Source: Amphiscolops sp. MND2022
Lineage: Eukaryota
Direction: 5' to 3'
DNA: 64,000 bases
Assembly: GCA_964187785.1 (NCBI GenBank)
Contig: OZ076409.1
Coordinates: forward strand, 23,622,001 to 23,686,000
The translations under genes and the position numbers were made by a program. This document shows, piece after piece, positions 19,795-64,000 of the stretch. The notes beneath the pieces were generated by a model, which searched no databases, was not told the DNA's origin, and worked only from the letters and a program-made list of their open reading frames with translations. Position 1 is the first letter of the stretch. Each line of letters starts with the position of its first letter.

Positions 19795-19876
19795 TCACTA
19801 AGCTGAAAACACGTGTCTGATTTTGTCGGAATTATTATAACATAGTCAGCTATGTTCACATACCCCTAGTGCCCTA
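19795..19876. repeat. Isolated copy of the MITE core module
   Basis: GCTGAAAACACGTG..GATTTTGTCGGAATT...AGTCAGCTATGTTCACAT.CCCCTAGTGCCCT matches 501-612 directly and 170-225 inverted. Confidence 0.6.
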
Positions 19877-20585: not shown

Positions 20586-21065
20586 TCATTTTTTTAGACG
20601 CGTAAGTTCCACTTTTTTGTTCATTTGTTCAACAACGTCAAACCTCAACAACTCGAACCTCAAAAGCGCGTCCAAAACAATAAGAAGAAACAAAACAGAC
20701 GTCCAGAACCTCGAAATCACACTACGGATCCCCCCATAGTCCCACTTTTTTTCGGCACTATGCGACTTTTTTTGAAACTTTTTGGATTGCACCAAAGGGT
20801 CCCCCTCCTTTTTTTTAACATTTTGCAACACAATGAATGTCAAAAAATTCCGAAGGGTCCCCTTTTTACATTTTTCGGCACTGTGACACTGTTCAAAAAT
20901 CTCATTAAAAAAAATTTTTGGGAAATTTTTTCATGTCCCCAAAGGGTCCCCCTTCATTTTTTTTTATTTTTTGCAACCAGCTGGAGTTTCACAAAGCCCG
21001 AAGGGTCCTCTTTTTCAATTTTGAGTCTTAGATATGGCGCCGACTTTGGCCGTTCTCGGCTTGTT
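20586..21065 (+). mobile_element. Non-autonomous repeat family A (Helitron/Helentron-like), copy 1
   Basis: Internal GGGTCCCC repeats. The 3' end is CTTAGATATGGCGCCGACTT.GGCCGTTC.CGGCTTGTT (GCCG/CGGC hairpin, then CTTGTT). No TSD found. Confidence 0.6.
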
Positions 21066-21277
21066 TGCTGTTTCACTGAAAAATGTTTTTTTTTTTAATT
21101 GACTGTGGAAGGTATCAGGTTCATCTTAGAGAGTGCTTCTCGTATCCATTGCTTCAATCTTGATCAATCGGTTTGTCTTTTCCAATTGGACGTTTTCTGT
21201 GTAGTTTCAGTGAATATAAAAAATACCATAAATGATCTTGGTATCTAAAACTTTTGCTATCAGTTTTAGATTGTAGT

Positions 21278-29749: not shown

Positions 29750-30464
29750 GATATCTAGACATCGGTTCTCTTTCTGAAAAGGCTAAAAATTCGAATGCTT
29801 ATTCAAAGGTTTTGCTCGTCAAGTTTGCTTATTTGATATAATCAGTATTAAAAGTTTGAAAATATATTGAAAGCTTTTCTTTCAAATTTTGGCACGTCTC
29901 TAGTTGTGTTTCCTGCAATATGATGAAATTTGTACTTTCATGTAGATTAATGATACTCTGAAAATATGATGAATTGAAATGCTGAAAGCCAACACTCCGT
30001 TTTACATGTTATAAGTAGAAATTTTGTTGACTTTGATATTCAAATATGATTTTTTCGAGAAATTGTTTGCCTAATGATAATGCTGCTGTTTTGATCTAGA
30101 AGAAAAACGAGCTCAATCTTTTTTCACTATTTCGATTAGTTTCCATTGACATGTGCACTAGTGTAATGAGATACCTTAGTATTTCATAAGGGATGTGCAA
30201 AAACAATTTCACTGCCCCTCGAAGAGTTCTCTTATTCTCTGGAAGGTGGTACATTGCTAATCACAAGATAACATACCTTGCATTTGGGTCTTTCAAGCAT
30301 TGAATACTCTGGTATCTTTTTCGATTAAAAAATCTTTCTGGCTACTTCGATCAGTTTCCATTGGCAAGTGCACTCGTTTTTCATCTCAAACTTTCGTTAA
30401 TGTGTTTTTCTTGATTGCTTGTCCCATTCTCTTCTCCCATTGTTTCTTTTGTAAATAAAAATTA

Positions 30465-39400: not shown

Positions 39401-42400
39401 AACAACGCTCCTCAGCAATTTGATCTCAATGTTTTCGGTTTTCTGTTTTGCTTGCAACACTACATTTAACAGTTTTTGGGAAGGAATTTTGACCGACATG
39501 GCTTCGAATAGTATTCGTTGTTTTTGGTACCAAATTTTCGTTAGTGGGTTACTCGTTTGTGATTGCTTGTCACACTCTCTTGCCATGACTTCTTTTGTAT
39601 ATCTTAATCTGATATGATGAAAACACGACGGTCTTCCAATTTACCATGTCGAAATATAGAGATTTCTGATAACTTTCACTTGGCGAAGAAGCTTCTGTTC
39701 CACTTGATAAACAGTCAAAAATGCCATGATGATCTTGACACCTCTTGTCTGATTACATTTGATGCTGTTTTGAGAACTGACATTTTGAAAGGCGTTTCCA
39801 TAGTAATACAACGCTTTCTCGGAATTTAGATTTTCAAATTTTTGGATTTCTCTTGTGCTTGCAACATTACATTTCACTGTTTCTTAGAAGAGATATTTTC
39901 ACCGACATGGATTCGAATTGTATTCGTTGTTTTGCTATCAAATTTTCGTTGGTTCCTTATTTTGATTGCTTGTCGCACTCTCTTCTTGCCATGGTTTCTT
40001 TTGTATATCAAAATCTGATATTTTTGAAAACACGAAGGTCTTCCAGTTAATCATGACGAATTATCGTTTTCTGATATCTTTCATTTGGTGAAGAAGCTTC
40101 TGTTCTACGCTCGTGAGAAACAGTCAAGAATTCCATGGTGATCTTGACACCTCTTGTCTGATAACATTTGATGCTGTTTTGAAAACTGATTTACTGAAAT
40201 GCATTTCTATAGTAAAACAACGCTCCTCAGCAATTTGATCTCGATGTTTTCGGTTTTCTGTTTTGCTTGCAACACTACATTTAACAGTTTTTGGGAAGGA
40301 ATTTTGACCGACATGGCTTCGAATAGTATTCGTTGTTTTTGGTACCAAATTTTCGTTAGTGGGTTACTCGTTTGTGATTGCTTGTCACACTCTCTTGCCA
40401 TGACTTCTTTTGTATATCTTAAACTGATATGATGAAAACACGACGGTCTTCCAATTTACCATGTCGAAATATAGAGATTTCTGATAACTTTCACTTGGCG
40501 AAGAAGCTTCTGTTCCACTTGATAAACAGTCAAAAATGCCATGATGATCTTGACACCTCTTGTCTGATTACATTTGATGCTGTTTTGAGAACTGACATTT
40601 TGAAAGGCGTTTCCATAGTAATACAACGCTTTCTCGGAATTTAGATTTTCAAATTTTTGGATTTCTCTTGTGCTTGCAACATTACATTTCACTGTTTCTT
40701 AGAAGAGATATTTTCACCGACATGGATTCGAATTGTATTCGTTGTTTTACTATCAAATTTTCGTTGGTTCCTTATTTTGATTGCTTGTCACTCTTTCTTC
40801 TTGCCATGGTTTCTTTTGTATATATAAATCTGATATGATGAAAACACGACGGTCTTCCAATTAACCATGACGAATTATCGTTTTCTGATAACTTTCATTT
40901 GGCGAAAAAACATTTCATGCTCCTGAGAAACAGTCAAAAATTCCATGATGATCTTGACACCTCTTGTCTGATTACATTTGATGCTGTTTTGAAAACTGAT
41001 GACCTGAAAGGCGTTTCCATAGCAATACAAAGCTCTTCCGAAATTCGATCTCAATTGTTTTTGGTTTCTTCTGTTTTGTTTGCACCACTACATGTTCACA
41101 GTTTTGGAAAGGAATGTTTTGACCGACATGACTTCGAAATGTTTCCTTTGTTTTTGATCTCAAGCTTTCGTTAGTAGGTTTTGCTTTTGATTGCTTGTCG
41201 CACTCTCTTCTTGCCATGGTTTCTTTTGTATATCAAAATCTGATATGTTGAAAACACGACGGTCTTCCAATTAACCATGACGAATTATCGTTTTCTGATA
41301 TCTTTCATTTGGTGAAGAAGCTTCTGTTCTACGCTCGTGAGAAACAGTCAAGATTTCCATTGTGATCTTGACACCTCTTGTTTGATTACATTTGATGCTG
41401 TTTTGAAAACTGATTTACTGAAAGGCATTTCTATAGTAAAGCAACGCTCCTCAGCAATTTGATCTCGATGTTTTCGGTTCTCTGTTTTGCTTGCAACACT
41501 ACATTTAACAGTTTTTGGAAAGGAATTATGACCGACATGGCTTCGAATAGTATTCGTTGTTTTTGATACCAAATTTTCGTTAGTGGGTTACTCGTTGGTG
41601 ATTGCTTGTCACACTCTCTTGCCATGGCTTCTTTTGTATATCTTAATCTGGTATGATGAAAACACGACGGTCTTCCAATTTACCATGACGAAATATAGAG
41701 TTTTCTGATAACTTTCACTTGGTGAAGAAGCTTCTGTTCCACTTGATGAACAGTCAAAAATGCCATGATGATCTTGACACCTCTTGTCTGATTACATTTG
41801 ATGCTGTTTTGAGAACTGACATTTTGAAAGGCGTTTCCATAGTAATACAACGCTTTCTCGGAATTTAGATTTTCAAATTTTTGGATTTCTCTTGTGCTTG
41901 CAACATTACATTTCACTGTTTCTTAGAAGAGATATTTTCACCGACATGGATTCGAATTGTATTCGTTGTTTTGCTATCAAATTTTCGTTGATTCCTTATT
42001 TTGATTGCTTGTCACTCTTTCTTCTTGCCATGGTTTCTTTTGTAAATATAAATCTGATATGATGAAAACACGACGGTCTTCCAATTAACCATGACGAATT
42101 ATCGTTTTCTGATAACTTTCATTTGGCGAAAAAACATTTCATGCTCCTGAGAAACAGTCAAAAATTCCATGATGATCTTGACACCTCTTGTCTGATTACA
42201 TTTGATGCTGTTTTGAAAACTGATGACCTGAAAGGCGTTTCCATAGCAATAAAAAGCTCTTCCGAAATTCGATCTCAAATTTTTTTGGTTTTCTCTGTTT
42301 TGTTTGCACCACTACATGTTCACAGTTTTTGGAAAGGAATTTTTTGACCGACATGACTTCGAAATGTTTCCTTTGTTTTTGATCTCAAAGTTTCGTTAGT

Positions 42401-42625
42401 AGGTTTTGCTTTTGATTGCTTGCCCCACTCTCTTCTGCCATTGTTTCTTTTGTATATTTAAATCTGATATGATGAAAACACGACGGTCTTCCAATTAACC
42501 ATGACACTGTTGTTTTCTGATGTTTTTACATGTGAAGTAGCCTCTGTCTTACGAACTCGAACGGTCCACATTTTTTCGTGATGCTCTTGGCACTTGTCTG
42601 ATTACATTTGATGCTGCTTCTTTCA
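30465..42625. repeat. Satellite array, about 30 monomers of 390-420 bp with higher-order organisation
   Basis: The block GATGATCTTGACACCTCTTGTCTGA.TACATTTGATGCTG recurs throughout. The period is exactly 390 bp at 32072, 32462 and 32852. Distinct monomer variants recur in the same order; both edges are degenerate. Confidence 0.97.
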
Positions 42626-44846: not shown

Positions 44847-45476
44847 CTAACTGGATAATTTGAATGATAGATAATTATTTGTATTATTTTGTCTCATGCT
44901 GTGATAATCCTCTAAAGACTCTGCGTCTGATTCTTCATCTGAATGTATAGTTACGTCTACATCGGACTCGCTCCGAAACAGAGGCTTCGCGGGGTGTTTT
45001 AACTCCGTCATTTTAGACGCTCTAATAGGATTATCCTCATCTTCAGGTTCAGAATTTTCTATGTTGGATGCATGAACTCCTATAGGCTCTTTACTCCTGG
45101 ATCCTGACGGTCGCATATCTTCAGCTCCGTTAACTTGTGACCTGGGGTTTGTTACTGTAGAGTGGCTCCTGTTTGACTTTATCTGTTTTAGAATAGTATC
45201 TAGTTTATTCTCCATTTCTTCTCTCATTTTTTCTATCCTATCATTGTTTTTTTGTTCGAAAATCTCAGTCCAAGCTTGTATTTCAGAACTAGTTTGGCTT
45301 GGTTCAACAAGTTGATTTCCCAGGTTAAGTCCACCTAAATTCTCATCAACATTTGAATTAGAATTAGTTAAAGTCATATTACCTGTCTCAGGAGAATCAA
45401 CTCGAGTCCTATTCCCTTCTCTTTCAGGAGACGGGGTTTCTAGAATTCTTGATCTTCTATTTCTCTTGTTTCCCAT
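44847..45476 (-). other. ORF starting inside the LTR; probable N-terminus of Gag, truncated at the LTR edge
   Basis: Clean 209-codon frame with ATG, a coiled coil (DRIEKMREEMENKLDTILKQIK) and an acidic tail. Composition changes abruptly after EDYH at 44900. Confidence 0.5.
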
Positions 45477-45872
45477 CTTTGCTCAATCAAAAACGATCAG
45501 GTTTATTGGGGAAGAATTTGAATTAGAATCCAAATTGGAAAATAATCCAAAGTCGGAAAAACAAATCAGAAAGTGTTTAAAGGGTTCAGTGAATTGGATC
45601 AACTGCACTTTGAGAGGGTTATTTTTTCAATTTAGTTTCTATTACAACCCTTTCCTTCAATCAAAATAAAAGAATGACAAGCACTTTTTCTAAACATCAT
45701 TGGGTCCTGGAATCATAAAAATAGAATGACATCAACATTACTTCATCCTATATATAGTTTTCCAATAATCACGGAATTATGACTACAAAGCTTAAAGACC
45801 CTAGGAAAAATGCTGCAAAATGATATATTAAGTGCTACAAACACTGTTCAAATGATGCATAGATGCGTGACA
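44900..45872 (-). repeat. Putative 3' LTR (973 bp) of the Gypsy element
   Basis: The minus strand starts TGTCAC and ends ATCACA (TGT...ACA). It has a TATATATA box (45749-45756) and then AATAAA (45502-45507). The internal ORF runs into AT-rich flank right after the ACA. The PPT is weak (AAAATGGGAAC). Confidence 0.6.
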
Positions 45873-45899
45873 CTCAAAAGTTCCCATTTTGGACGAAAA

Positions 45900-46145
45900 C
45901 CGTATAATGCCGCATATACACATCACCTAATACCGTATGGTAACGTATAATCAAGCCTATTCAAAATGCATGATGATGAGTAGTGATAATAGTAAAAACG
46001 TATGTTACCGCATGAATGACAAATCTAAAACCGCATGTTGCCGTATATGCTGAATACCTTTTTACGCATAATGCCGCATGATGTACATTGTAAAAATGCT
46101 TCTTACCGCATATTAGATGTTCAAAATACCGTATCATGATGTATG
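45900..46145. repeat. 33-bp phased array 1 (8 units, variable spacers)
   Basis: Motif nCG(C/T)ATnnTnnCG(C/T)AT starts at 45900, 45933, 45966, 45998, 46031, 46064, 46096 and 46129. Confidence 0.8.
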
Positions 46146-46384
46146 ATAATTTGGATGATGGTAGACTTAATCAATCTTATGCAACAATTCAGCACGTGCC
46201 TTATTATTAAATGGGTTTAATGCAATCAAAGAAGCACCTTAAGGACTACAATCGAACCCTTAAATAAATTTAAGAGACAAGGTAAACAAATAAATTACAT
46301 GACTTCATCAAAAGAGATTGTTTAGAAATGAGTCTTTTAGAGTTTTGAAATGTTTGTACAAAGGGTCTCATCACTCGTTCCTCT

Positions 46385-47407
46385 TTACTGCTGCACCACG
46401 GAACCATCACATCTAGCTGGATGTGACAGTCCCGCGTTTTTGAAGAGGAACAAGGAGGCCTCAAAACCATGAATAAAAGCTCTTGATCGAATTGCCCGTT
46501 CTTTAACTGTTTCATTCTCGTACTCGGTCGCAACCAAGTACTCACCGAGCGTCTCCAATGCTATCTGGTTGTAGCATTTTCCACAAATGTCACAATACCC
46601 AGCAACGTTGGGCATGACTGTTGGCAAGAGCCTGATGCTCTGTCTTTCTTGGGCAGGGATTAGGATAAGGTTTGTGCTATGGGTCGCACTAAATGGAAAA
46701 CCTATCTGCGTCAGGGGCTGTACAGGAGCTAGAAAAGTATCTGCTACTGTCCCTCTCAAAGGAACAGGGAAAAGCATCGGCGACAAGTTGAATCCCTGGA
46801 CAGCATTATGATTCCCGCCATTTGGTTGCATATTGTTATCGTGCCTATTTTGTTCCACAGGTTCCCTGATCTGGGTTTGCTGAAAAGCTGTAGACTCGGG
46901 ACTATGGTTGAGTGGATAATTGGGTATCGGTCGTGGCAATATCCCTCTTGCTTCACGGTCCGCTCTCACATTTGGAGGGATGGTGGCAATCGGTCGACCA
47001 AAGCTGTTTACGCTCGTATTCTGGGTGTTACTCACAGTCCAGGGGAACAGATTCTCCTCTTCGAACTCGCTGGCCACAAACGACCCTGGTGAATCCATTT
47101 GAGCTTCTGGTGGGTCCGCTATGAGTTCGGCCAGGTCTTTTTCAAGTTCTGTCCCCGTGGTTGTCATCTCTTCTCCTTGATCTGCTGTCGTTGTTGCGTC
47201 AGGGTATAATGAAGCTATTGTTGAGCCCGAGAAAGCTGACATCAAATTGCTTCCGACTGGGTTTATTCGAAACCTTTCTTCGAGCTGGCCGACATCCCCA
47301 GGAGTGACGGCAAAGGCATTGTCTGAATCGCTGGATATGTCAATGACATCTGGCGATATCGGCGAGTACAAAGAATCTTCATCAAAATTGAATTGTAGAC
47401 CGTTCAT
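46385..47407 (-). CDS. Orphan 340-aa ORF in the Gypsy 3' region (acidic/Pro-rich N-terminus, CDICGKC motif)
   Basis: Uninterrupted ATG-initiated ORF with a TATA-like CCCTTATAAGGG about 170 bp upstream. No family recognised. Confidence 0.65.
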   Translation of the reverse strand: MNGLQFNFDEDSLYSPISPDVIDISSDSDNAFAVTPGDVGQLEERFRINPVGSNLMSAFSGSTIASLYPDATTTADQGEEMTTTGTELEKDLAELIADPPEAQMDSPGSFVASEFEEENLFPWTVSNTQNTSVNSFGRPIATIPPNVRADREARGILPRPIPNYPLNHSPESTAFQQTQIREPVEQNRHDNNMQPNGGNHNAVQGFNLSPMLFPVPLRGTVADTFLAPVQPLTQIGFPFSATHSTNLILIPAQERQSIRLLPTVMPNVAGYCDICGKCYNQIALETLGEYLVATEYENETVKERAIRSRAFIHGFEASLFLFKNAGLSHPARCDGSVVQQ

Positions 47408-47449
47408 CTTGATTCAAAGAATGAGTTTTTAGAATGAGCTTTAAGTTTT

Positions 47450-48810
47450 AGTAAGATCTGGGCGACTGGTTTTCAAACTTATCAGTATCACACTGTGATT
47501 CTCCTCTTCAAGCTTTCTCTGATTTCCCAATTCCCGCGGAAAAATCGAGTGTCATTGATGCGTGGGTTTACCGAACCCCTTATAAGGGCTAGGTGTCTCC
47601 CTTCTGATATTCAGGCGGCAACACCTTTGGATTTCCACTCGTAAAAGCAAATAAACAAAATGATTTGGGGATATTCATCACCTCCATCAGTCGACAATTT
47701 CCTTTTAATCTTCTTAATCTTACTTCAACGTTTTTTAAATCGACGTAAACAAATCCGTCCTAATTCAGATTCATTCAAAATATGAATGGATCATCAATTG
47801 CATGTAACTTTATTTATGAAAACATGAATGGGAGATCTTTATAAATATATTTTACATGACTAAATCAACTAATCTCTAAAAAAACACACAGCTTGCAATC
47901 AGACTATTGTTTTTCAAAGAATCATCTTGTGAAGAAATACACATATCATCAGATAATGCATGTTTGTACATTGTTGTATCTGTGTGTCAGAGATTCTCAA
48001 GGGAACATGTAACCTCATTGTGATGTGTCTCTCTATTTTGATGCAAAGTGCTATATAGCCTACTTCTTGTATAGTTGTTGGCTGTAGCATCCTTGCACAC
48101 ATACGCAGCTAGTATAATACTGTGTGTTCGTATTCAGTAAGCCTGTCCATCGCTGCACATATGCTGTGTTACAATCCGCATGTATCCGAACGCTCGTTTT
48201 CTCTCAATGCGTATGATGACGCATATTCTTTTCATTGAATTCCGCATGATGCCGCATATTCTTTTCAACGAATTCCGCATGATGCCGCATATTCGTAATC
48301 GCTCGATGCGTACCATGCCGCATATCCTCTTCAACAATTTCCGTATGATGCCGCATACTCGCTATCCCTTTATACGCATGTTACCGTATATTGTGCATAC
48401 GTGATTCAGAAATGAGTATGCTTTGTACTATAGCGTGCTGAATAAGTTTGAAAGTTGTCAATCAACCAGTCAATCACTCTGGCAGAAGTAAACTGAATGA
48501 TTAATTGACCAATCAGCGTTCAGCTCAAATGTGTACATTTTTGCCAAATTAAAGTTCATTTGCTTTTTGCCTTTTCTTTGATACGCCACGTCTTTACTCC
48601 ATTGATATTGCTAAATCTTTTGTCATATCGTACATTGTCTATTCCGCAGTTTTAGTCTGTTATAAGTCTAGTTATTCAACCTCTTTTCCAGTACTTAGTC
48701 AGTCTTTTATCACCTGTTGGATCCTTATTTAAACACATTCTCCATTAGTCCTTGGGACTTTACTTCTTCTTCGCCAGCTATTCCTTGCGGTGACATCTAT
48801 CTGACTCCCC
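47450..48810. promoter_or_regulatory. Candidate bidirectional promoter between divergent cargo genes
   Basis: Lies between the ATGs at 47407 (-) and 48814 (+). Contains a palindromic TATA-like CCCTTATAAGGG (about 47577-47588), CCAAT (48509-48513) and array 2. Confidence 0.4.
48176..48390. repeat. 33-bp phased array 2 (7 units, mostly different spacers)
   Basis: Motif starts at 48176, 48209, 48242, 48275, 48308, 48341 and 48374; consensus CCGCATGATGCCGCAT plus a 17-bp spacer. Confidence 0.85.
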
Positions 48811-48813
48811 CCA

Positions 48814-51800
48814 ATGGATTCACAGAGATCACGGAAATCCAGAAAAGATCAGATATCCCGGAAACAGCAATCGGCTTGGGGCTACAAATCTCTTACTTCT
48901 GTGTCGCCACGTAAGTTCAAATTTTTAGTTTCTTCTGAGATTCATTGTTGCTGATTTGTTTTCCGATCGGTAAAATTTTAATCATCAGCTGGCCGGGCTG
49001 ATATTTTGAATAAGCTACTCTTGCATAGTATGCTTTTGATTCAGATTTTCTTACGGAAGTCAGCAACTTCCGTCAAATTAGTTCAGCTACTTCCGCCCAA
49101 TTTATGTTTTCTAAAACCGCGTCCGTAATTAGAAAATTCTTGAAGAGTAGAGAGCTGAGTTCAGTTTTGTTTTCTTCCTTAATGAGATTTGTCAAATTTA
49201 TTTGTTTTAGTTGAACTTGTGGCTACAGAAAAATCACCAGGTCGTTCCCCTACCAAGATTTATACTCCCTTGGAGGTCATTCCACCAGGACAGTCTACTG
49301 TTCCAAGCCCCATTGCGAATCCAGAGCATATTTCTGTTATCACCATTGGCAGTTCCACTATTGCATCGGACAACGCGGCAGTTGAATTAGAAGAACCCCA
49401 AGGTAAAACTGTTGTTGATACAGCTGAGGATATAGTTGACCTAGATGGTATCGTCCATAGTCCGGCTCAAGTTAACGTTGATTTATTGGATTCTACCATT
49501 AATTCTGAAGAGTTAGAAACTTCTAAAGAAGAGGATATTCCACATTTAGCCTCCATCCACGAAAATCTGGTAGCACCACTTGTATCGGGAGTTAATGCTA
49601 TGACCATGGATACTTCTCCTGAAGTTATTACTGATCCCAATGTAGGGGCTAGTGTTCCTTTACCCAAACAGCACGCTAGTACATCTCTGTTCACTCATTT
49701 CTTGTTACCTTCTCCAACTGCCCAGGTTGAACAACTTGATCTAGATCCAGCAAAACATAATGCCTCCCTTAACAAAAGTAACAACAAAGCTGATGAGGTA
49801 CCCACTGATTCCGAAACCACGGAAGTTCACAGGTCTAACGTTCAGGGTGTCAACATTACACGAAATGAGCTAGTGGCCATAACAAACGTTATCGAAAAAC
49901 TCCCACAGTCTTACATCGGTGGGACTGAAACTGAAAACAATCAGGGGATAGCTTTCTCGGTCGTTGAAGACACACTCCAAGAGCCCCCCAGAGGTAATCC
50001 AGAGGAAGATCAGCATGCAACTACTAGTGGGCCTAACATATCCCATTCAGCACAAGAACTCGATGAAGCACCGGTTATCTGCAACAAACGACCGAGGCCT
50101 CGCTATTCTCTTGAAGGGTCCATGCTTCGCAAGCACCCTGTCCTGAAACTTTCCGCTACAGGACCAGTCAATCGAGGCAAAACACCTTACAAATGGACTT
50201 TCCGAGTGTGCCGAATTGAACTATCCCTTATGAGCCGAGGAGTGTTGGAGTTAATGGCGCATTATAAAACCGAATCACACCTGGTTAGGGAACATCGAAT
50301 TAGGATGGAAACTCCGGGCATGGCACTATACGATAAGGACGAGTGTGAACTACAGGGTCTAGCTCTAGCAGGAGCGAAGAAAATCGCTAGGGATACATAT
50401 CCCATCGCCCCCCAATTGGCCTGTTATCGCCTGTTGGTAGGACAAGACTCAATGCCACATTTCGGAACAGACAAGAGTCACACTGAAACGGTTTCCTCAC
50501 AAATCTGTATCATAGAGATTGGGTTGCGCAGAGGAGGCGACATTTCCTGCGTGACTGACATTTATGACGAAATCAACCGATTTTCAAGCGGGGAAGGACA
50601 AGCAATCACCTTCAATTGGAGTCCTTACCGCATATTTGTAAGTGATCTCAATTTTCATCAATCCTATAATACTACTTCAGGTATTTGAAATTCGTGTGAC
50701 CAGAAGTTTTTGAGTAATCATGATGTCGTATTCAATCGTTACCAAGTCCGACCGTAGTTTTCTTTTCAGGAAATCATCACTCACATGTTCAGGGAATTGC
50801 TCAACTATTGTGTGACCAACGTAAATGCTAGTGGGGTTTATTCTCTGTCCCTGATGAGCCATCCCACCGAGAAAACCTTATATCTCAGCTTCTGGTCAGG
50901 AAATGTCCTGCATCAGGTATGCATTGGAACTGGACCAAGAGGAAACCTGATTCCTCGCAAAATCTTATCTCTTGTTGCTTCATTCATTAGTTTATTTGAG
51001 ACGACGCCCCCATGTATCAGCCTCATTGGGTTAGGAGAGCGGCTCAGCCATTGTCTCAACGACTTTACCTGGTCATCCTCGGCCGATAATCATCAACAAC
51101 TTTGGCGAAAACGAATTCGAGAGGTGTCTCGCATTACCAACTGCCAAAATTATCGAGAGACACGATTTCAGAAGTATCCTCGATTAACTCCTGCTGAGAT
51201 TGCGGACCAGCCCTGGATAAAGACTGGTTGCAATCACTAGCCCAGTTGCATAAGGCATTATATCGTTAATTTCGTTTTTCTTAATGTTTTCGTTTCTTTG
51301 AGTTTACTTCAGTTTGTTTCCAGTGTGTGATCAACTTGCAGTACTCCCTCGAAGAAGCTTCTACCCTGATTGAGACTCTCTCACAGAATTGGGATCGCGT
51401 CCGAGACCACCTTGAGCAGGTTGCCAGACTCCCATCATATCGCTCTCACATGAGAGAGGTATATGTTTTTTGAAAATGTTTCATATGGCTATACATTTTG
51501 CTCATCTCGAAAAAACCTTTTTCTTTCAGCCTTATAGGTTATGTACCGAAAAGATATTTGTAATCATCATTCTTGTTAATTAATGTAGAGAACTTTAAAA
51601 AAATTGGGCAACTGAATGCTAGTAATGGAAATCAACAATATGGAGGTAAATCAACTTTAAGTTTGTATCAAACCTTGATCGCACCGAATATATAATTAAT
51701 GGAAACATTGGGAAGTCAATGAAACGAATAATCTAATGTAAGAAATGAATGGATGTTGAAACTCCCCCTTTTTCGGAGCTATATCAAGGGCACAGCAAAA

Positions 51801-54800
51801 TTTTAGTGGAAAGTTCTGTTTTTATTTTACCTAAAGGGTTTGTTAGCAGATCTGACGGTAAAAATTCCAGTAAAATTTCGCCTTTTTCCGTTTTTTCCTG
51901 AAGGAAGCAAGTTTTTATGGCAAAATGTTTTGTCTTGTTATGATGGATTGAGTGTTTGCTTAGAGCTATGCATGCTTGATTGTCAACAAACACGCTCACA
52001 GGTTTCACCACAACAACTTCAAGCTCACTCAATACACCACAGACATACGACAACTCTTGTACAGCAACAGTGCAAGCATTGACTTCAGCTTCGGCTGTTG
52101 ACAGAGCAACACTAGCTTGCAACTTACTGGTCCAACACACACAACCACTCACACTGTTCAATTTCACACACACGCCACTTGTACTCTTTCTCGATGTCAA
52201 CTCACCGGCCCAATCTGCGTCAGAGAAAGCACTAACAGACACGCCACCTTCACACATTCTAAACACGGGTTCATGTTGCTTGGTTCCTTTCAAATACCTC
52301 AAAATTCGTTTTCCGGCCATCCAATGTTCTTTTGATGGATGCTCTAGGAAACTACTTAAGACGTGAGAGGCATGAGCATTGTCAGGACGACTGCTAAGTG
52401 CTAAGTAGTTCAAACTACCAACTAATCCTCTATAGTCTCGTCGTTCCATTATGCTTTGTTCGTCATAATCTTTTTCTTTGTTACTTTCTCGTTCGAACTT
52501 GGTATTTTCTGGTAACGGATTTTGTACTGGTTTACACTCTTCCATGTTGTAGCGTCTCAAAAGATCGTCAATATACTTCTCCTGACTTACTGCGATTTCG
52601 CTCTCTGTAACGTCTATCTTCATCCCGAGGAACCAATGTAATGAACTACAGTCACTCACTTCAAACTGTTCTTTCACTTTCTTCTCGAACCATCCAACAA
52701 AAGCATCCTGTCGTCCCCAATAAAGCATATCATCCACCCACACACACACAACACACACCTCATCACCAGTACCTCTCACAAACAAGCATTTGTCGTTTAT
52801 ACATGCTCGGAATCCGACTCTTTCTAGGAACATCTTTAGTGTTAAATACCAGTTGCGCCCAGACTGTTTAAGTCCGTATAAACTCTTTCGCAACTTACAG
52901 TACACGTGGTTACCTTCGTTATTTTTGACTTCAAAGCCTTCCGGTTGTTCCATGTAGATGTTCTCTTCTATGTCTGCATTCAAATATGCTGTTTTGATGT
53001 CCATCTGTCTTGGTTTTACTTGATACTGCGCTGCTAGGTTCAACAGAATCCGTATTGTAGACATTCTCGCAGTTGGTGAATAGGTTTCGAAGAAATCGCG
53101 ACCCTCAACTTGTGCAAAACCTTTCGCAACAAATCTGGCTTTGCACTTCTTGAAACTTCCGTCTTCGTTGTGTTTCATCGCAAAATGCCATTTTCCTCTC
53201 AATGGCTTAGTTTCTTTCGGTAGTTCCTCCAATGTCCAAACTTGGTTACTACACAAGGAATCGAATTCAGTTTTCATTGCTTCCTTCCACTGAGGATCAC
53301 TCAAGGCTTCTTGAACGGAACATGGTAGCTTAATCTGACTTGGTTCCTTCTTTGCATTGAATGACACTTCATCGCCCGCAACCTCTGTGCCATGAAGTTG
53401 ATTGGATGGGATGTTGTTCACACTTGGTTGACCTTCCTTGGTTCCAAAGTAAAACTCATCCTCATTAAACCTCACACTTCTTGTTTTGATCTTCTTGGTT
53501 GCGCCGTTTTCCTCTAATCCAACTATGTACGTTTTGCTGTTCTCTGCAAAACTTAGAAAGACTCCCACTTTTGCTCTCTCGTCGAATTTTTCTCTGAATT
53601 GCTTCTCCACAAAACTGTAAACTTTGCAGCCAAACACTTTTATAAAGCTTAAATTTGGCCTTTCAGCGTACATCCTCGCATATGGAGTTTGCTTGGTTGC
53701 TGAGTGTAGGAGCAAGTTTTTGATGTAAAATGCATAGTTCAGTGCGTATTTCCAATATTCTTTGTCCATGTTGGCCCGATGGATCATACACCTGGCCATT
53801 CCGCAAATTGTTCCCCACACTCTCTCAATTTTCCTATTTTCCTCCGGTGTATACGGTGCAGATGTTTCCTGTCTGATGCCTTTGTTCCTACAAAATGTCT
53901 TCATGTCACCGCCAACGAACTCTTTTGCACAATCGGTTACAAGAACTCTTGGTTTCCCTATATCTGCACTGTACTGCTAAAATTTCGCTGCTACTTCGTC
54001 ACGGCTTTTCATGAAATAAACCTTACCATAGCGACTGTAACTATCTTGGAATCCTATGGCGTACTTATGACCATCCACCGAAACTGGTGACACTGGGCCT
54101 AGGACGTCACAATGTACGTAGTCCAATGGCTCTTTGGCCCGTGTAATGCAGTCTTTGGGTACAGGTCTTCTTTTGGCTTTGTTAACCTCACACACTTCAC
54201 ACACGAACACGTCATTTTCACACACATCCATTCCAACAACATGTTCCTTTAACTTTTTCAAATCCTCCCAGTTATTATGACCCAGTCGGTCATGCCACTT
54301 ACTTAGTTTACTGGAGAGGCATGTCTCATGCTTGGTTACTCTCAAATCAGGGACTATTCTCCAAACGAACAAATTATTTCCTTGTTCTATGTGAAACTTG
54401 GTTCCATCAGACGTCGTTAAGGAGTTTTCCTCTCCGAAACGAATCTCCACCCCGACTTTCTTCAGTCGCGCTACGGACACTAGGTTTCTGTCGTACGCCG
54501 GCACGTACAACGCATCCCGCAACTCCACTCTTCTCGCGTTACCTTCGCTATCCTTTACACAGAAGACAGCACGGCCTTTTCCGCACAGTTTCGACTCCGT
54601 CTTGTTGGCACATCCAACTACTCCTTCTATCTCCTCATTCAGTTCGGCAAACAGTTTCCTGTCTTTTATCATGTGGTTCGTGCAACCACTATCTACCACC
54701 AGGTCATTACTACTCACCGCAATATCTTCATTTGCAAAGAATGAAAATTGGACCTCCTCATTTTTGCCTGAGTCATCCTGTTGCACGGCTAATCTTGCCT

Positions 54801-57800
54801 CATCGGTTCCTTGGTTGCTTTGGTTTCCTCTCAATTTGAAACAGGTACTTAAGGTGTGTCCTTTTTTCTTGCAGTGGTTACAAAATCTTTCCGGCATTCG
54901 ATGATTACTATCGCGGGAAGTCACTTGAGACGGGCAAAACTTCGCTATATGTCCTGGTTTACTGCATTTGAAACAGACGCGAGGTTGTCCAAAACTCTTA
55001 GTTTGCTTGGTCTTTGTACGTGCTTTTTGTGTACACTCAAATGATTTGTGACCTGGTCCTCCACAGAGATGACATTTAACTTCGTTACGACTGAGGAACG
55101 TGGTTTCTTCTGCTCTTGGTTTCCTTCGGTCGGTGTCGAAATTTATCAGATCCCTCTTTACCTCGTCCAAATTTTTTTGTTTCCTTGGTAAACTTTACGA
55201 GGGCACAAAATGTCTCGAAATTCTTGGGAAGACCTTTGAACAATATTGATATAAACATTTGCTCGCTTAGCGCTTCGTCCACCTGACTTAGGTTGTATTG
55301 TAGGTCTTCAGTTCTGGTAATGTAATCAACACTTGTTTCATTTTGATCTTTTCTAAGTGAGGTCAGTTTCTCAATCAGCTGCTGCAACCGAGGACGCTCA
55401 AAACTCTTAAAACGGTCGCACAAGGCTTTCCACGCAGCTGGACCTCCACCTCTGTAACTTCTTACGAACAACAGAGACTTTTTATCCAAGCATTGTACCA
55501 ATTCGCACCAGATCTTATATTTTTGTCAGCAAAAATTTCCGCCGCCTTTTCATCAGCTACCTGCCTTTCTTCTCTCGATGAACCACTTCTTGCTTTCGGT
55601 CTACAAGACTCAACACCCTCACTTCCATTCAGCACACCAAACAGTCTCAACAAATACATTCTAGCTTCAAACTGTTCACAAAACATAACAAAGTCATCCT
55701 CGCTCCCTGAAAATTTGAGACTTTCCAACTTCGTTTGGACACTCACAGCCATGACAATCAAGCATGGAACACTCACTACAAACACTCAGATAATAAATAT
55801 TATTGATTTCAAAATTCAAATAATAAAAAATTAGGCAACCATTTTTTTTATTTCGAATTGATGACAAGCTATTTACTCTACGGCAAATCTGCTAACAAAA
55901 CAAAAGTGAACTTTTTTACTATTTAGTCATTCAGAGTCTGAAACTCTAATTTTTATTTGATTTCATCATCCTGAATTGAAATGCATTTTGTTATTAAAAA
56001 AAAATCTTTTTTTAAATTCAAAGGGGAATTTCTTATATGGGAAGGGATCTAGCACTAATTAAAGAGAAAGTTCAAAGTTTTCCGTAATACTTTAAAGAGT
56101 TTTTCTGGGTTCAAAAAGTTTTAGTAAAGTTGTGAAATCCAATTGTAGAACTTTCTCTTCAACTGTCCGCAGACTCTTTTTTTCAAATTCCAACTTTTTC
56201 TTTGAAATTGTCAACTTTTCTCGCAGAAAATGTTGCTCCTCTAATGTCCCATTCAATCACTTGGGATCACAGACTCCAGTGGAATCGTTCTGGGCCACAT
56301 AACCTTATAGGTTATGTACCGAAAAGATATTTGTAATCATCATTCTTGTTAATTAATGTAAAGAACTTTAAAGAAATTTGGGCAACTGAATGCTAGTAAT
56401 GGAAATCAACAAAATGGAGGTAAATCAACTTTAAGTTTGTATCAAACCTTGATCGCACCGAAAATATAATTAATGGAAACATTAGGAAGTCAATGAAACG
56501 AATAATCTAATGCAAGAAATGAATGGATGAATCATATGTTGAAACAGCCAAATACGTTGGATGAGTGTTTTCGGCTGGACACGGCCTATCTGGCCCGATT
56601 GTTCATCATACGTTGTGTCATCGACCATTGTTAGTATTTTTCACGTATACTTGTGTCAGAATAATATTTCTGAGTCAAAAAAATCCCGTAACGAAAGTTT
56701 TAGTCGTTCTTGAATTTATTCCTTCACTTGTAATTTCCGCGAAGTCAATAGTATTACCTTTTGTAGATAGTATCGTCCTTAAGTACATCTTTATTATTGA
56801 TGGAATATACAACGTTTTACTCGTTTCACTCTTTCACCAATAGGATGAGCGGCTTCCAAAATATCAATTTCCGCATTTTCACGTATGGCTATAGCTTGTA
56901 ATTCAGTATAGTAACGCATAGTGACTGTTTGTAATTCCGCATAGTTACGCATGGTGACCGTTTGCAATTTCGCATAGTGACGCATGGTGACTGTTTGCAA
57001 TTCCGCATAGTGACGCATGGTGACTGTTTGCAATTCCGCATAGTGACGCATGGTGACTGTTTGCAATTCCGCATAGTGACGCATGGTGACTGTTTGCAAT
57101 TCCGCATAGTGACGCATGGTGACTGTTTGCAATTCCGCATAGTGACGCATGGTGACTGTTTGCAATTCCGCATAGTGACGCATGGTCTCCATTTATATTT
57201 CCGCATGATGACGCATATGCGGCATACGGAAAAACGTATGATAACGTAGGTTCTCGGTTACTCTTCAGAAATAATCTTCTTTTGTATTTGATCTCAATCT
57301 TGTTGATTTATTTTAGACAATTCCGCATTCTCTGAAGTGCACAATCAGGTCGACAACGGGTTCCGACTTTACAACCAATTCTCAGTCTTTGTATACTGCC
57401 AATTACAGAATCTGTTTCCTGACAGTTTCCTTGGCGACATAACAGACTGGGATAATTATCTAAAAATTGATCTCTCTACTGCTAATTTGCCTTTCAAAAC
57501 CCCTGCGGAATTTGTCCTAGGAGCTGATTACCAGGCTCTCATTATTACCAGCCGATTACCACGACCTAGTAAATTTGTAGAGCAGACGATGTCCTTCTGC
57601 AAAGCTTTCTGTGTTGTACTGCTCAATCACGAAGTAATTAAGTCTGATCTCCTGCGAGGACTCTCATCATTCGATCATGCTGTTCTACTTGATGGACCAG
57701 AGGAGAACTATGTCTCTGCTGTCGAAAGTCTAACAAGTTATTTTGTTTCTTGTGGATGGATGACCGCTAGCAATAAGGTTAAAGCTGTGAGCCAATACCG

Positions 57801-58425
57801 ATCATTCGCTATAAAACTTCGTGCTGAAAGTGGAATTATCAGATCTGATTGGGTTCAATTCCTCATTTCTCATTATGAAATGCAAAGTCGTCCTGAGTTG
57901 CCTCAATTATTTAGAAATGCTTGTCTATGCCTGCCGCCTGTTGTCATCGGACCTCCTAAGTTTCACGTCTCGATTCCTGGCTTGGAATCAGATGAGCATT
58001 CTTTCCGTTCCGTAGTAAGGAGTCTGCAATTGTCTTATGTCACAGTTCCCAATGTTTCCAGCTTATACAAGAGTCCGAAAACTATCAGTCGCGTGTTCCG
58101 ATTACTTGGACGAGGACCTAGCTTAATTCGCGATAAGAAATTTTCCGTGAGGAATTTCCTCAAGGGAAGTGAAGTTCGTCGCAATGCTGTATTCGGAAAA
58201 TTGGAGATATCCTACAAGAAGTCCGTGCTCCGAGGGGAAGGTTTGCCTTTATTTCTGGACATGACGTCGCCTAGTGAGAGTAGAACTCCCAGTTCCAGTA
58301 GTTCCCCCGTAACAGGGCCTTCTTTGGGGCGTGTTTCTGTTACCGTTTCCCGCTGTTCGGAAGAAGGAGTAGGAAGAAGTGCTGCTAAGAGCAAATCTAA
58401 GGCGTCCAAGGAAAAGAAGAACTAA
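48814..58425 (+). CDS. Spliced antisense cargo gene, about 1,105 aa, zinc-finger + degenerate hAT/ZNF862-like transposase; interrupted by Copia
   Basis: Exons 48814-48910, 49211-50637, 50770-51226, 51313-51458, 56548-56629 and 57317-58425 total 3318 nt with no stop once Copia is removed. All introns are GT-AG and phase-consistent; the 51226 donor is weak. Motifs: RVC...SRGVLELMAHYKTESH finger, TLSQNWDRV, LQNLFP, LSSFDHAVL, RPELPQLF..ACLCLPP. Confidence 0.7.
51532..51761 (-). repeat. Copia 3' LTR (230 bp)
   Basis: Matches 56305-56544 with about 6 substitutions and 2 indels; preceded on the minus strand by the PPT AAAAAGGGGGAG (51762-51773). Confidence 0.93.
51784..55752 (-). pseudogene. Copia gag-pol polyprotein with frameshifts and one premature stop
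   Basis: Three CX2CX4HX4C knuckles; protease VVDSGCTNHM; WHDRLGH...CEVC; integrase HCDVLG, TDCAKEF, PEEN; RT KARFVAKG, MDIKTAYL, LYGLKQS, VWVDD; RNase H FSDADWAG, VDNQAC. Breaks near 55500 and 55100-55170, and a TAG at 53977. Confidence 0.95.
56290..56304 (-). promoter_or_regulatory. Copia primer-binding site (internal tRNA-iMet type)
   Basis: The minus strand reads GGTTATGTGGCCCAG, i.e. the copia-type GGTTATGGGCCCAG with one extra base, directly next to the 5' LTR. Confidence 0.85.
56305..56544 (-). repeat. Copia 5' LTR (240 bp)
   Basis: About 97% identical to the 3' LTR; minus-strand termini TTTCAACA...CCTATAA. Confidence 0.93.
56871..57250. repeat. 33-bp phased array 3 (12 units, central 7-8 homogenised)
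   Basis: Motif starts every 33 bp from 56871 to 57234; central units are CCGCATAGTGACGCATGGTGACTGTTTGCAATT. Lies in the last intron of the cargo gene. Confidence 0.95.
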
Positions 58426-58606: not shown

Positions 58607-61600
58607 TTAGTATCTATATGAGTCTGAGTAATTGGGGTTAGGATTTGGGCGTAAGTTGTATTTTTCGCCACGAGTATTTATGGGTTCTTCTTGCAATGGG
58701 GTATTTTGTGAATTTTCTGGGGATTTTTGTGTGTTTTTTGGAACATTTTGGGTATTTTCTGGGGTTTTTATTCCAGTTGTATTGTTTTTATTTTCATGGG
58801 TTTCTTCTATAATTGGAGTATCATCAGGAATTTCTTGTGGGGTTATATTTCTATTCTCCACTTCTGGAGCAGTGGTTTGTTCCACTGGGCTCCCCCCGCT
58901 GTTTTTTGAAGAATTCGGGGAGTGAGGGCGGTTTTGCTCAGGTATTTCGATTGGAACGTATTCTATATTTTCTGTATTGAGTGTAGATTCATAAGGGCTT
59001 TCCTCAAATGGATTGGGGCCAAAGGTCGTATTCCACGATTGGGCATATAGATCGTCATGTGACACTATCATCTGGTCATCTTTTTGCCAGTCCGTTTCAC
59101 GAACGAAGATATCTGCTAGGGGTGCTTGCGGCGTAAGTTTTCGTAGGCGAATTCTGTGTAATAACTGAGTTTTATTGGTACCGAGTTTTCTGACTATATA
59201 ATTGTTGTTAGGGAGAACTTTTTCGACTTTATAAGGACCGCACCATCTGAATTCACGGAACGGAATCTTAGTCGTTTGGGTGTCTGCTTTTGGGTTTAGA
59301 ATGTAGCAGTAATCCGTAGTCTCCAGCGGGGCTGCTTTTGCTTTTCTATCGTAGTGGGCTTTGTATCTAAGATAGCACTGCATGATATTTTTCTTAGTTT
59401 GGTCTAGGAGAATCTGCATTCAGCGTTGTACTTCTTCAGCGATATCAGTTTGCGGTTGATATCGAGGATTTGCGTTGTAACTAAGTTTATAATCAAGAAT
59501 ATTATGAGGTATACGTCCGTGAAACACTCTTGAAGGTTCACAACCAAGTGATGCATGGTATGTTGTGTTGTGATTAAGGACTGCCAATGGAAGGTATTTA
59601 TGCCAGTTATTCCTAAACTCGCCTGTGGCGGCTTTTAGGTGTGTTTTGACTGAGGCATGAGTTCGTTCCAGGAGACCTATTGTTTGTGCATGCTTCATGG
59701 TAGCGTGTTTTAATTCAATTCCGAGCACACCAGCGATTTTATGTTACATGAGCATTGAATTGGGTTCCTAAGTCTGTTATGATGGTTGTTGGGAGGTAGG
59801 TGTGTTTACATAGAATGTCCATTATGACCTTTGAGACCGCTGTTGCATTAATACGGGTTGCTGGATATGCAAATAGGTATCTCGAGAAGACATCTATTGC
59901 TGTTATAATATGGTCATAGCCACCACTTGTAGGAAGGTTCGGTAGGATGTCCATTTGCAGAATGTCCTCTGGCCCTAAATCCCATTCTGGGCAATTTAGG
60001 AGTTCGGATCGGAGAAGGTCATTGTTAATGCGCTTATTTTGGATGCATGTTTGGCAGTTTGTTACCCATTTTTCATTGTATTTGGCTATACAGGGGTAAT
60101 AATATTTTTGTCTAGATTCCTGAATCATTTTTGTGATTCCTGGATGGTTAGAATTGTGACCATGTAGGGCGTGGAGGAATTCTTCCAGGAGCTGTTTCGG
60201 GAGTAGAATTTGGTAGTGTGATATTATTCCTGTGTCCGTATAGTATCTACGGGTAAGGACTTCTTGTTTTATCTCGATTCTGGTGATATTCTGGAGGTAA
60301 TGTTGGTATCGGTGGTCCGATGCTAATTCGTTTTCGTCGAAGGGGTTTCCTTCGAGTTTAGCTCGCAGGTTTCTGAATACAACATCATTATTTTGCTCAA
60401 GTCCAATTCGAGCGTTGTCTTTAAAGTGTCCTGATGAACAGGAGATTAGGCCGGAAATGGGTTTGTGGAATTGTTGAAGTTCATTAACGTCATTTTCGGG
60501 TTCATTATGTGTTTCATTTTGTGCTTTTTCGCGTACGTTGTGTTTCTCTTGCCATATTTGATTTTCGGCAACCTCATCATCTGGAAGTATGTAGATTTGT
60601 TCTTCCTCTACGATACCTGAGGATTGAATGTTGACTTCTATGGCTTTTGTGTGGATATCATTGCGAAGAGTCATCTCGAGCTTCTCTGTGGGATTGACTT
60701 CGGTTCTTGAGAGGAAATCAGCCGCAGTATTCATTGATCCAGCGACATGGGCAATAACAAAATTGTATTGTAGCACGTAATCACAAGCGTTCCAGAGGGC
60801 TGGAGGAATTAATTTTGCTTGAAAAAATCGGGTTACCGATCTGTTGTCAGTGAAGACGATGACTGGGAAAGTAGATCCCCACATCAAGTGTCCAAATTCA
60901 ACGAACGCAAAATATATTGAAAGGAATTCTTTTGCGTAAATTGACATCTTGGTTTGTGTCGGGTTGAAGGTTTTTGACCCGAAGGCTATTGGTGCATATG
61001 TTTTACGTTTTGATTGTAGTTTCTGGATTGAGTCATCTATCATGATTGCATATCCGGCTGCTGTAAAGCTTGCATCAGACATAACAATTAATTGTTTGTC
61101 TTTGAGTGGCTGTTTTAACGCTAATCGGCAAGAATTTTCCAAGAGTTTATTGAGGTTGGTGAAATCTTCTACCAGATTTGTTGGTACGTAGAATTTAGAT
61201 GTTTCTTTGAGAAGTTTGAAGAACGGAGCAAGCCGTTCCGACAGGCGGGGTATATAGTTCCTGTGATAGTTTAAGAATCCAATATACCATTGTAGCGCCT
61301 TTTTAGATTTAGGGAATCGGAGTTTTGAAATGAAATCTTTCACTTTGTTGGCTTGCGGGGAAACTCCTTCGGGTGTGATTGTTCGTCCCAGAAAGTCGAA
61401 TTGTTTAACTCCGAAATGGCATTTGGACATGGAGAGTTTCAGACCGGCGTTTCGGATGCATTCAAAGACAGTTTTGATATTGGTGCACAGTTGTTTTGTG
61501 TCATTTGCTGCTATGCCAATGTCGTCGACGTATTGGGCACATTGATCTGCTTTGATTGCTCTGTCCAGATATTCTCTCATGAAGCTGGAGAATGCAGAGA

Positions 61601-63420
61601 GAGATCTGCTGAGCCCTTGGGCCAGACGGCGATAAGCAAATGTTCTGCTAGCAAAATTAAAGGCAAGCATTTGGATTGATTGGTAGTCTGCCATTTGGAG
61701 GCAGTGGTAAGCCTGGGAGCAATCCAATTTGCAGAAAAGTTTTTTCCCTGCCATGTGTTGGGCTGCATCTGATAAGGTGCTTACCGGTTGGTTATTATTT
61801 GCATAATCTTCAGTGATGAGATTATTGATTTTTCTGAGGTCCACGAGGAGTCGGAGGCGCCCATTGGGTTTGCGTTGTGCAAAAATTGGGCTGGCGTATT
61901 TGGAAAATGGTAAAGTTGTAATTATACCATATTTGTGGAGAAGTGCAAGTTCTACTGTGATATCATCTTTCAAGTTGATTGGAGTTGGCAGACTTTGGCT
62001 GTATGCTGGTCTGTCATCATTTGGTGTTAGTTTTACCTTGAACTCACGATTTATACCTATATCAAAACGGTGTCTGGCAAAAATATCGTGAAATTCAACG
62101 AGAATCCCTTCAGTTTCCTGACGTTCGACTGGGCTGAGTGTGGTGTCGGACCAGTCGAAGTTTGAGAGGAATGCTTTCCTGGATGATTCGTTATCGTGTG
62201 GGTTCAGTTTTTAAAATTCTTTTAATTCAAGAAGTTCATTGTAGATACGTTGTTGTATGGGGGTATAAGATGCAGGATCGCCTGGATCTTCCGGAGTAGG
62301 AAACCAGTACGATTCTTGTTCAGGGTTTGGTTGTGGTACTTTTAGAAGTTCATTTATCTATACATCCGTGGTTTCCTCATGTTGTATCATGAAGGATAGC
62401 ATCGCGGGGTCAACAGGCTGTATGTGTTTGATTTGTTCGGAAGTGAGGATTTTGAAATCAGCTAAATGGGTATCGATAGTTATCGTGTAGGGTAATTCGG
62501 AAAAGTTGATAGTTTGGTACCCAATAGCGTTATTGTTGACTGTGCTAAGTGACGCTGTGATGAAAATGCTATCATGGTTTTCAAATTGAGGTGATGGTGT
62601 GACGATTCCTGTTGCGTCATGGTCCATCATTTGTGGCATTTTGCTTGCTATGGCGAGTGTTTCGCCTGGTTGTAGAGTGTAGTTATTTTCAGCAAACAAT
62701 GGTGTTGCTTGCCGGATGGACGTTTGGGTGTCAGGTTTGAGTTGCATTGAGAGATAGGGGAAGGTTAGGATGCCTTGTGTGACACCAAAAATTGCGTTGT
62801 TTCTGCGAAGGAAACACAGTCCGATTAGCGGGTTTGGCAGGTTTTTCATGATTATGAAATTTTCTTTTAACATGAAATCAGCCACTTCAATTTCTAAGAG
62901 AACGTACCAATGGGGACTTTTGATTGGCCGTTTGCCACCATGATTTGGAAGTTTGGTGGAGGACCGGTTTCTTTGATTGCTTCGCTAGCGAGCAGTTTAA
63001 TTTTGTTGAGGTCTTGTTCAGATATGGCACTTGTGAGAGCTCCGGTATCAATAAGACCATCAAGTGTGAGTTTTTCGAAATCCATCGGTTTGTAGTACAT
63101 GTGGCGTTTTCTTTTCAGTGTTAAAGAGGTGGAAATTGGTAAATACGACAGGTTGCGTTCTTTGTCAAACTGTAGATGTTCGGTGAGGTCTTCATCCAGT
63201 AAGGGTTGTTTTTGGTCATCGCAAGAAGTTTTTATGGTGACATGATTTTTAATGGGTGAATCATGGTGAGTTTCGGGGTTTGGGTCGTTTTCAGTGTGTG
63301 TTGGTTGTTTAATAAAGTAGTTGTCTGGTGCATCACGGAGAAGTTCGTATGTGTCTTCAGGTTGAGTTTCTTGTGTTGAGTGTTGAAAGTTTTGTGTTGT
63401 TTGGTGAGATTCAGGTGTTA
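58607..63420 (-). pseudogene. Gypsy pol (protease, dUTPase-like, RT, RNase H, integrase), disrupted
   Basis: LIDTGA protease; RLLVDLRKIN, LDCSQAY, LAQGL, YVDD, FLG RT motifs; SDAS, FGSK, FTDN RNase H; HALHGH..HPG...C..C zinc domain, DIL, IDVFSR, TDLG, LERTH integrase. Breaks near 63420, 62890, 62358, 59735 and 59420. Confidence 0.95.
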
Positions 63421-63509
63421 TGTTTTTGTAGGTTTTGGGTTCGGCTGATGCCGCCAGTCATCAGCAGAGTTGATTTTTTGTGGTGATTTTATGTAAAGGC
63501 GTGGCGTTT

Positions 63510-64000
63510 CTAGTTTAAATCCTCTGACGAAGATTGTTGGTGTTTTTCTGATTTAGGTCTGATTGGTTTTTTAGCTTGTTTGTATGCTTCTATGATTTTC
63601 TTTTGTGCGTCAGTGAGGGTCCATTTTGGTGGACGGTTTTCCATATTGGCACCAAAATAACAGCTTTCTTCGTCATGTCCTAGTGTTTTGCAATTATGAC
63701 ATTTTTCAGCATCTGGATCTTCCTCAAGTTTACGCCGTTTGGCTAGTTTGGGACAGTCATTCATCATGTGACCTGTCTCTTTACAGTAACGGCATTGATC
63801 ATTCTTGAGGGTTTTATCGGGTACTGTTTTTGCTGTTTGTTTTTTAGCTTTTTCATTTTGTTTTTTGTTGGTTTTCTCATTGTTTTCTTCCTTTTTGGTA
63901 GCGGTCATTTGGGTTTTGACGAGGGGTTCGTCTGCCTCTAGACCGTTAAGTTCCATTTCTCGTTCTAGATGTTTAACTATTTGATCATAAGTACCATTTT
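63510..64000 (-). CDS. Gypsy gag C-terminus with two CCHC zinc knuckles (5' part outside the window)
   Basis: YDQIVKHLEREMELNGL, CRYCKETGHMMNDC and CHNCKTLGHDEESC. Ends GAT TTA AAC TAG. Confidence 0.9.
   Translation of the reverse strand, partial: NGTYDQIVKHLEREMELNGLEADEPLVKTQMTATKKEENNEKTNKKQNEKAKKQTAKTVPDKTLKNDQCRYCKETGHMMNDCPKLAKRRKLEEDPDAEKCHNCKTLGHDEESCYFGANMENRPPKWTLTDAQKKIIEAYKQAKKPIRPKSEKHQQSSSEDLN

Follow-up and report, generated by a model that had tools for sequence, protein, structure and literature searches.

The genome of Amphiscolops sp. [quoted passage not shown] We describe this antisense gene from one copy of the element, situated in a window of 64,000 nucleotides (contig OZ076409.1 of assembly GCA_964187785.1, positions 23,622,001 to 23,686,000 of the forward strand; coordinates below count from its first base), and from related copies in genome G000. 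An earlier interpretation of the letters alone, the sequence-only reading, had proposed that a giant Gypsy element had here domesticated a DNA transposase gene as a non-catalytic accessory factor.

The antisense gene is multi-copy and is found beside pol throughout. Searching genome G000 with exon 6 returned 6,799 candidates, 110 of which were scored (each genome search scored the best 100–150 candidates). At the 30 best loci, and at the 36 loci found through three distant relatives, the C-terminus of pol invariably converges on the antisense gene (66/66). LTR pairs were seen in 22/23 and 8/8 regions of at least 20 kb, some of them 99.7–100% identical, and a perfect 5-bp target-site duplication (TSD) flanks all 24 copies in which both ends could be called (7 of 31 could not). 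The gene moves together with the LTR unit; the 8-bp TSD and terminal inverted repeats (TIRs) of an active hAT transposon were not found and, as the sequence-only reading had stated, no TIR-like inverted pair flanks the gene in the window. None of the refuting conditions set out in that reading was borne out. The junction between primer-binding site (PBS) and LTR was identified 7,449 times in G000, against once for a control, and 36 junctions were picked by step, not content, from the first 100 listed, all of them in one arm of C1. The gene is present in 28 of these 36 copies, 25 being recognised by profile search and three after adding DNA (finger E-values from 1e-8 to 4e-13; reversed controls E>2). 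The other eight comprise six that match reference elements with internal gaps, one copy that matched nothing and one, L186, that has reverse transcriptase (RT) and integrase and no detectable antisense gene. L186 carries the same PBS and, at 1031–2347, a different plus-strand coding stretch behind pol that belongs to no Pfam family.

The six plus-strand exons placed at 48814–58425 by the sequence-only reading are borne out by an alignment of 20 natural copies, in which GT and AG sites are conserved, exons are codon-patterned and introns cannot be aligned. Among 22 copies that have the box upstream (a further two, in which the anchor could not be located, were set aside), exons 3–6 mostly measure 486, 135, 82 and 1,109–1,115 nt, and in seven all six exons are open, giving proteins of 1,078–1,111 amino acids, with the first donor uncertain in one of the seven. 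The window copy is closed under the family-conserved splice sites, having a stop at 51238, a non-canonical exon 3 donor, and an exon 3 of 485 nt rather than 486, with indels near 51054 and 51207. For the open gene of about 1,105 amino acids with consistent phases in the sequence-only reading, a length of exactly 1,105 results only if the donor is set after 51226 and the acceptor before 51313, neither of which is used by any aligned relative. An intron that lies antisense to the genomic RNA escapes splicing of that RNA and survives reverse transcription; the introns of the antisense gene are copied because the genomic RNA reads the gene backwards and leaves them unspliced.

Judged by its aligned codons, the antisense gene is old and under purifying selection. 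In the conserved exons of the seven open copies, all of lineage A, the proportion of synonymous differences (pS) is 0.82–0.88 and that of non-synonymous differences (pN) 0.07–0.28; dN/dS is 0.04–0.16, estimated from 0–5 pairs per exon because most pairs are saturated. These data bear on the possibility that the gene is a passenger, a dead DNA transposon without function or relevant only as antisense RNA. Deletion derivatives without the gene do exist: L189 and L219 share one junction and the same internal deletions, the pol core and the antisense coding part being gone and the promoter and sense open reading frame (ORF) kept, and are probably a non-autonomous family. However, the derivatives without the gene also lack pol, as non-autonomous elements do, and over saturated synonymous divergence the frames have stayed open, exon lengths still preserve the frame and splice sites have been retained. 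We regard a passenger as very improbable, the exon and selection data having largely refuted it already.

Lineages A, B, C, D and E were defined by a quick RT tree of 52 rows, from which 14 were left out for having no unbroken piece; the core exon, that of the predicted RNase H fold, gives the same grouping (FastTree, 37 rows; rho 0.70). Between lineages, RT is 62–82% identical whereas the core of the antisense protein is only 11–20% identical. Within lineage A, RT and core distances are uncorrelated (rho -0.06), which may reflect either an exchange of modules or a shortage of signal. The five lineages all have a phase-0 intron at a homologous position, between the finger and the core exon; the exon 3/4 intron is common to A, C, D and E and missing in B. 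Three relatives from other assemblies, P0245, P0225 and P0150, have best G000 matches of 29%, 28% and 35%, identities so low that the family is probably also present in other organisms; no DNA context for these relatives came to light in two metagenome scans.

The 3' LTR of the window copy (Table 1), which lies beyond the antisense gene as proposed, pairs at 97.6% identity with a second LTR at 64622–66131, outside the window in L031, and the element is flanked by the 5-bp TSD CATGC. Paired LTRs, TG...CA ends and a short TSD are those of a Ty3/Gypsy LTR retrotransposon, and Pfam places gag-pol on the minus strand at 58607–64000, in the order gag, then protease, RT, RNase H and integrase (PR-RT-RNase H-IN). 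Unbroken copies have a two-ORF layout; in the window, stops and frameshifts interrupt pol. Read 5' to 3', the element consists of LTR, PBS, gag, pol, antisense gene, a cluster of motifs, a 342-codon sense ORF and LTR. A PBS-like TGG motif is present in all lineages, and the purine tract is short and imperfect. The antisense gene stops 181 bp from the convergent pol stop (182 bp in the sequence-only reading), and no conserved poly(A) signal was found in this gap. The total length is 21,232 bp, or 16.2 kb once a nested Copia is removed, and related copies measure 14.9–16.9 kb, for which 'giant' is a generous word; half of the interval 48814..58425 is Copia, which had gone unmentioned.

Table 1. 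Features of the Gypsy element and its antisense gene in the window.
Feature	Position	Strand	Basis
3' LTR of Gypsy, 1,529 bp, TG...CA	44900..46428	-	LTR pair identity, TSD
CGYAT cluster 1, in LTR, 12 motifs, spacing mostly 10/23	45901..46134	+	
Sense ORF, 342 codons, env position; stop inside 3' LTR	46385..47413	-	ORF, Pfam
CGYAT cluster 2, 33-bp array between two divergent genes	48129..48389	+	
Conserved non-coding boxes (CCAAT, ATTTGC, CGCCACG) upstream of exon 1	48505..48592	+	Alignment of 20 copies
Exon 1, 97 nt, basic	48814..48910	+	Alignment of copies
Exon 2: first half variable and of low complexity, followed by C2H2 finger and a helical segment	49211..50637	+	
Exon 3: predicted RNase H fold that lacks the catalytic acids; frameshift in window copy	50770..51254	+	
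Exon 4, 135 nt	51324..51458	+	
Nested Ty1/Copia, 5,013 bp, LTRs 96.9% identical, TSD CAGCC	51532..56544	-	Outside the Gypsy family's own content
Exon 5, 82 nt, most conserved exon (median 93% amino acid identity)	56548..56629	+	
CGYAT cluster 3, 33-bp array, 8.8 copies, intron 5	56872..57239	+	
Exon 6, 1,109 nt: all-helical domain ending in a basic C-terminal tail	57317..58425	+	
Gypsy pol (PR-RT-RNase H-IN), broken	58607..63457	-	Pfam, ORFs
gag 3' end (zinc knuckle); frame start ~190 codons inside 5' LTR, beyond window	63510..64000	-	

The sense ORF, given as 340 amino acids in the sequence-only reading, accompanies the antisense gene in 23/23 lineage-A regions, with pN 0.30 vs pS 0.80. It matched no Pfam family, and the transmembrane segment of an env protein was not found in it (highest 19-residue hydropathy 1.08). 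In lineage A its C-terminal part holds a conserved CxxC, and lineages B and C have acidic, seemingly unrelated ORFs at the same position. Conserved non-coding boxes in intron 1 (48985–49130), namely GCTGGCCAG, ACTTCCG (twice) and CGCGTCCG, recur across subfamilies and may be the promoter of this opposite-strand ORF; the boxes upstream of exon 1 are the putative promoter of the antisense gene itself. The gag frame crosses the PBS from a start in the LTR; its first methionine precedes the end of the LTR by 174–193 codons in most copies of lineage A (44900–45476 and 64622–65198 in this element) and by 126–133 codons in lineage B. Because the frame begins there, every 3' or solo LTR contains a fragment encoding the Gag N-terminus; our literature search found nothing close to such a start. 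Near 63500, the end of gag overlaps pol at a conserved GGATTTAAAC in lineage A and at an A-run in lineage B, likely a frameshift site.

The nested Copia, whose gag-pol was located by Pfam at 51784–55525, entered two bases into exon 5. It is a later insertion, since four Gypsy relatives of about 95% identity and 16.1–16.2 kb lack it and align on both sides of the gap (51540–56545). Its ends as defined by the TSD are non-canonical, reading TT...AA on the strand of the Copia itself; the AG of the exon 5 acceptor is restored by the right-hand copy of the TSD. Elsewhere in the window are a decayed LINE-like element on the minus strand (7405–11190; endonuclease and RT fragments), host genes with MBT, FHA and SPRY domains separated by inverted-repeat elements (12000–30000), and a 12-kb tandem array of a 390–410-bp unit with higher-order structure (30466–42505).

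The antisense protein has a C-x2-C...H-x5-H finger (C2H2) whose ligands are invariant across all lineages, which confirms the zinc-finger-like segment noticed earlier; one ligand is lost in the window copy. The zf-BED profile matched 2 of 26, with a best E-value of 0.0025 that was not shown to pass the cut-off. An RNase H fold, the core of hAT-derived proteins, is predicted for the core and is followed by a long helical part. No conserved acid occurs at the predicted strand 1, strand 4 and last-helix positions (52 core rows, 34 last-exon rows), so no conserved DDE triad is present, in agreement with the sequence-only reading, to which the acidic catalytic positions looked lost. Hermes, a hAT transposase, was the sole full-length match of both modelled halves, below significance. 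PF05699 and PF14291 did not match the protein, nor PF14291 anything in G000; sequence searches of the PDB with A1, A3 and A6 returned nothing meaningful, and Foldseek against PDB and BFVD nothing at E<=0.001. In the ESM Atlas the last exon scored 0.88 to DUF8422 clusters, a lead only, and the core had no usable match. A homodimer prediction for the finger segment scored 0.00, which is evidence neither way. We take descent from a DDE transposase to be probable and descent from hAT in particular fairly likely; of the hAT origin first claimed, the RNase H fold is predicted and the assignment to the hAT family is suggestive. ZNF862 and KIAA1586 are domesticated hAT derivatives.

Three clusters of CGYAT motifs accompany the gene in lineage A (Table 1). 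The motifs form pairs 10 bp apart (10/22–23-bp spacing) that repeat every 32–33 bp on a single strand, and motif and spacing persist over lineage-A subfamilies with differing flanking bases. Three of four B1 copies have four related pairs, with 11-bp spacing, upstream of the gene; such pairs were not found in the remaining B copies nor in C, D and E. A generic motif scan gave 3/20 false positives on shuffles.

We give roughly even odds to a reading in which the protein, descended from a hAT-like DDE transposase and no longer catalytic, binds the element's own non-coding DNA and keeps or turns the element on. A DNA transposon would have inserted backwards behind pol and then lost its ends; its gene would be transcribed from the conserved upstream boxes and spliced, yielding a protein that no longer cuts and still recognises DNA, like TnpA and domesticated transposases. 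In lineage A the finger would bind the phased CGYAT pairs in LTR, internal promoter and intron 5, in other lineages other, changed sites, and the protein would activate the element or counteract its silencing, much as TnpA or VANC does. Several observations weigh against this reading. No sequence or profile test for hAT reached significance, and matches to the RNase H fold include pelota, actin-like lobes, YqgF and integrases, with Z equal to or above any transposase. The arrays, through which the sequence-only reading had suspected autoregulation and which do exist, occur in one of five lineages, and action through 33-bp arrays is therefore not a clade-wide mechanism. Finally, the clusters resemble binding sites, and what binds them may be a host factor.

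The first two of these points, together with host-like introns, would suit a functional gene that is not transposase-derived, captured from host or virus with an RNase H-like fold (a dead nuclease or nucleic-acid-binding protein). We consider such a capture improbable, given that finger, helical segment, RNase H core and a 300-residue helical continuation follow hAT order and that Hermes alone aligns over the length of both halves. The last two points would fit an anti-silencing or arms-race factor acting through protein contacts with host machinery, the arrays being unrelated sites of a host transcription factor: the gene is in five lineages and the arrays in one, CRE-like boxes recur in several lineages, and very fast protein divergence fits conflict. 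Yet the finger ligands are invariant in every lineage, the motif pairs keep to one strand and to helical spacing at each of three separate sites, and some of lineage B has a related pair in the same place, making this explanation rather unlikely. The cluster within the LTR also raises the prospect of an integration cofactor that binds it on the cDNA and either tethers the pre-integration complex or imports it, or that picks target sites; the basic termini could be nuclear signals, and a transposase scaffold bridges DNA ends in the available part of PMC10368747. Against this, two of three clusters are internal, the TSDs are ordinary 5-bp duplications with no evident common sequence in 24 copies, and integrase is complete and conserved, so that we think it a poor prospect. 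Returning to binding of the element's own DNA, we advance only tentatively, and with some doubt, the wider proposal that an RNA-based element domesticated a cut-and-paste transposase, introns included, as its own sequence-specific anti-silencing transcription factor, that protein and motif co-evolve by lineage, and that the module helped the clade to reach thousands of copies.

LTR elements with antisense genes have been described in plants and in a fungus, the origin and function of these genes being open (PMC7264820, PMC11963269). Plant Gypsy elements (Tat/Retand, Grande, RIRE2) carry antisense ORFs (TRP28, gene23) that have no known source outside elements, TRP28 being seemingly confined to flowering plants, and PMC11963269 does not mention introns in them. 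Unlike the Tat/Retand ORFs, the Amphiscolops gene has about 1,100 codons and conserved introns and encodes a zinc finger together with a predicted RNase H fold, and its element has a separate sense ORF; PF04195 (TRP28) gave no match at E<=1 or 5. Transposases of hAT (Hermes; Tip/THAP0/ZMYM type) share the arrangement in which a finger is followed by a helical segment, the RNase H core and a long helical part, and the modelled likeness to Hermes over full length is weak. According to the portion of PMC10368747 available, the BED finger of Hermes binds subterminal repeats and BED fingers bind short repeated motifs. Unlike hAT transposons, the antisense gene has no DDE, TIRs, 8-bp TSD or PF05699/PF14291 match, and unlike domesticated hAT derivatives it is kept by another mobile element rather than by the host. 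The Spm protein TnpA and the VANDAL protein VANC are likewise accessory proteins that diverge fast between families and have short motifs multiplied as non-coding tandem repeats, VANC acting on motif clusters in its own element (PMC5735166, accessible sections). TnpA derives from a transposase that lost cutting and kept DNA recognition, in a preprint whose accessible text mentions neither retrotransposons nor LTRs (bioRxiv 10.64898/2026.08.24.746577). TnpA and VANC, however, serve plant DNA transposons, whereas here a class II scaffold would serve a class I element; plant accessory proteins have other origins in the available part of PMC13547354. Bdelloid LTR elements (ORF3: GDSL, DEDDy) and Burro are likewise invertebrate Gypsy elements with captured non-env genes, but in the accessible text their extra ORFs are sense or in-frame and none is transposase-like, Burro exceeding 30 kb (PMC5408684, PMC6431247). 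We found no intron-rich, transposase-like antisense gene of an LTR element in the literature searched, which lay outside Repbase and most subscription journals. The arrangement is a real and unusual variant of the known antisense-gene LTR elements, its structure and selection being observed and its origin probable.

The family combines an enzyme-like architecture with conserved introns, comes in five natural variants and has a candidate target motif, and hence its origin and function are directly testable. If the proposed domestication is true, an LTR retrotransposon outside plants would have a system like VANC/TnpA, and a gene would have passed from class II to class I elements. The case shows that a retroelement can keep an intron-rich gene over a long time, and a spliced gene of this kind would be missed by ORF-based annotation of transposable elements or miscalled as thousands of host genes. 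Were about three-quarters of the 7,449 junctions to carry the gene and most copies to be near full length, the clade would make up around a tenth of the genome.
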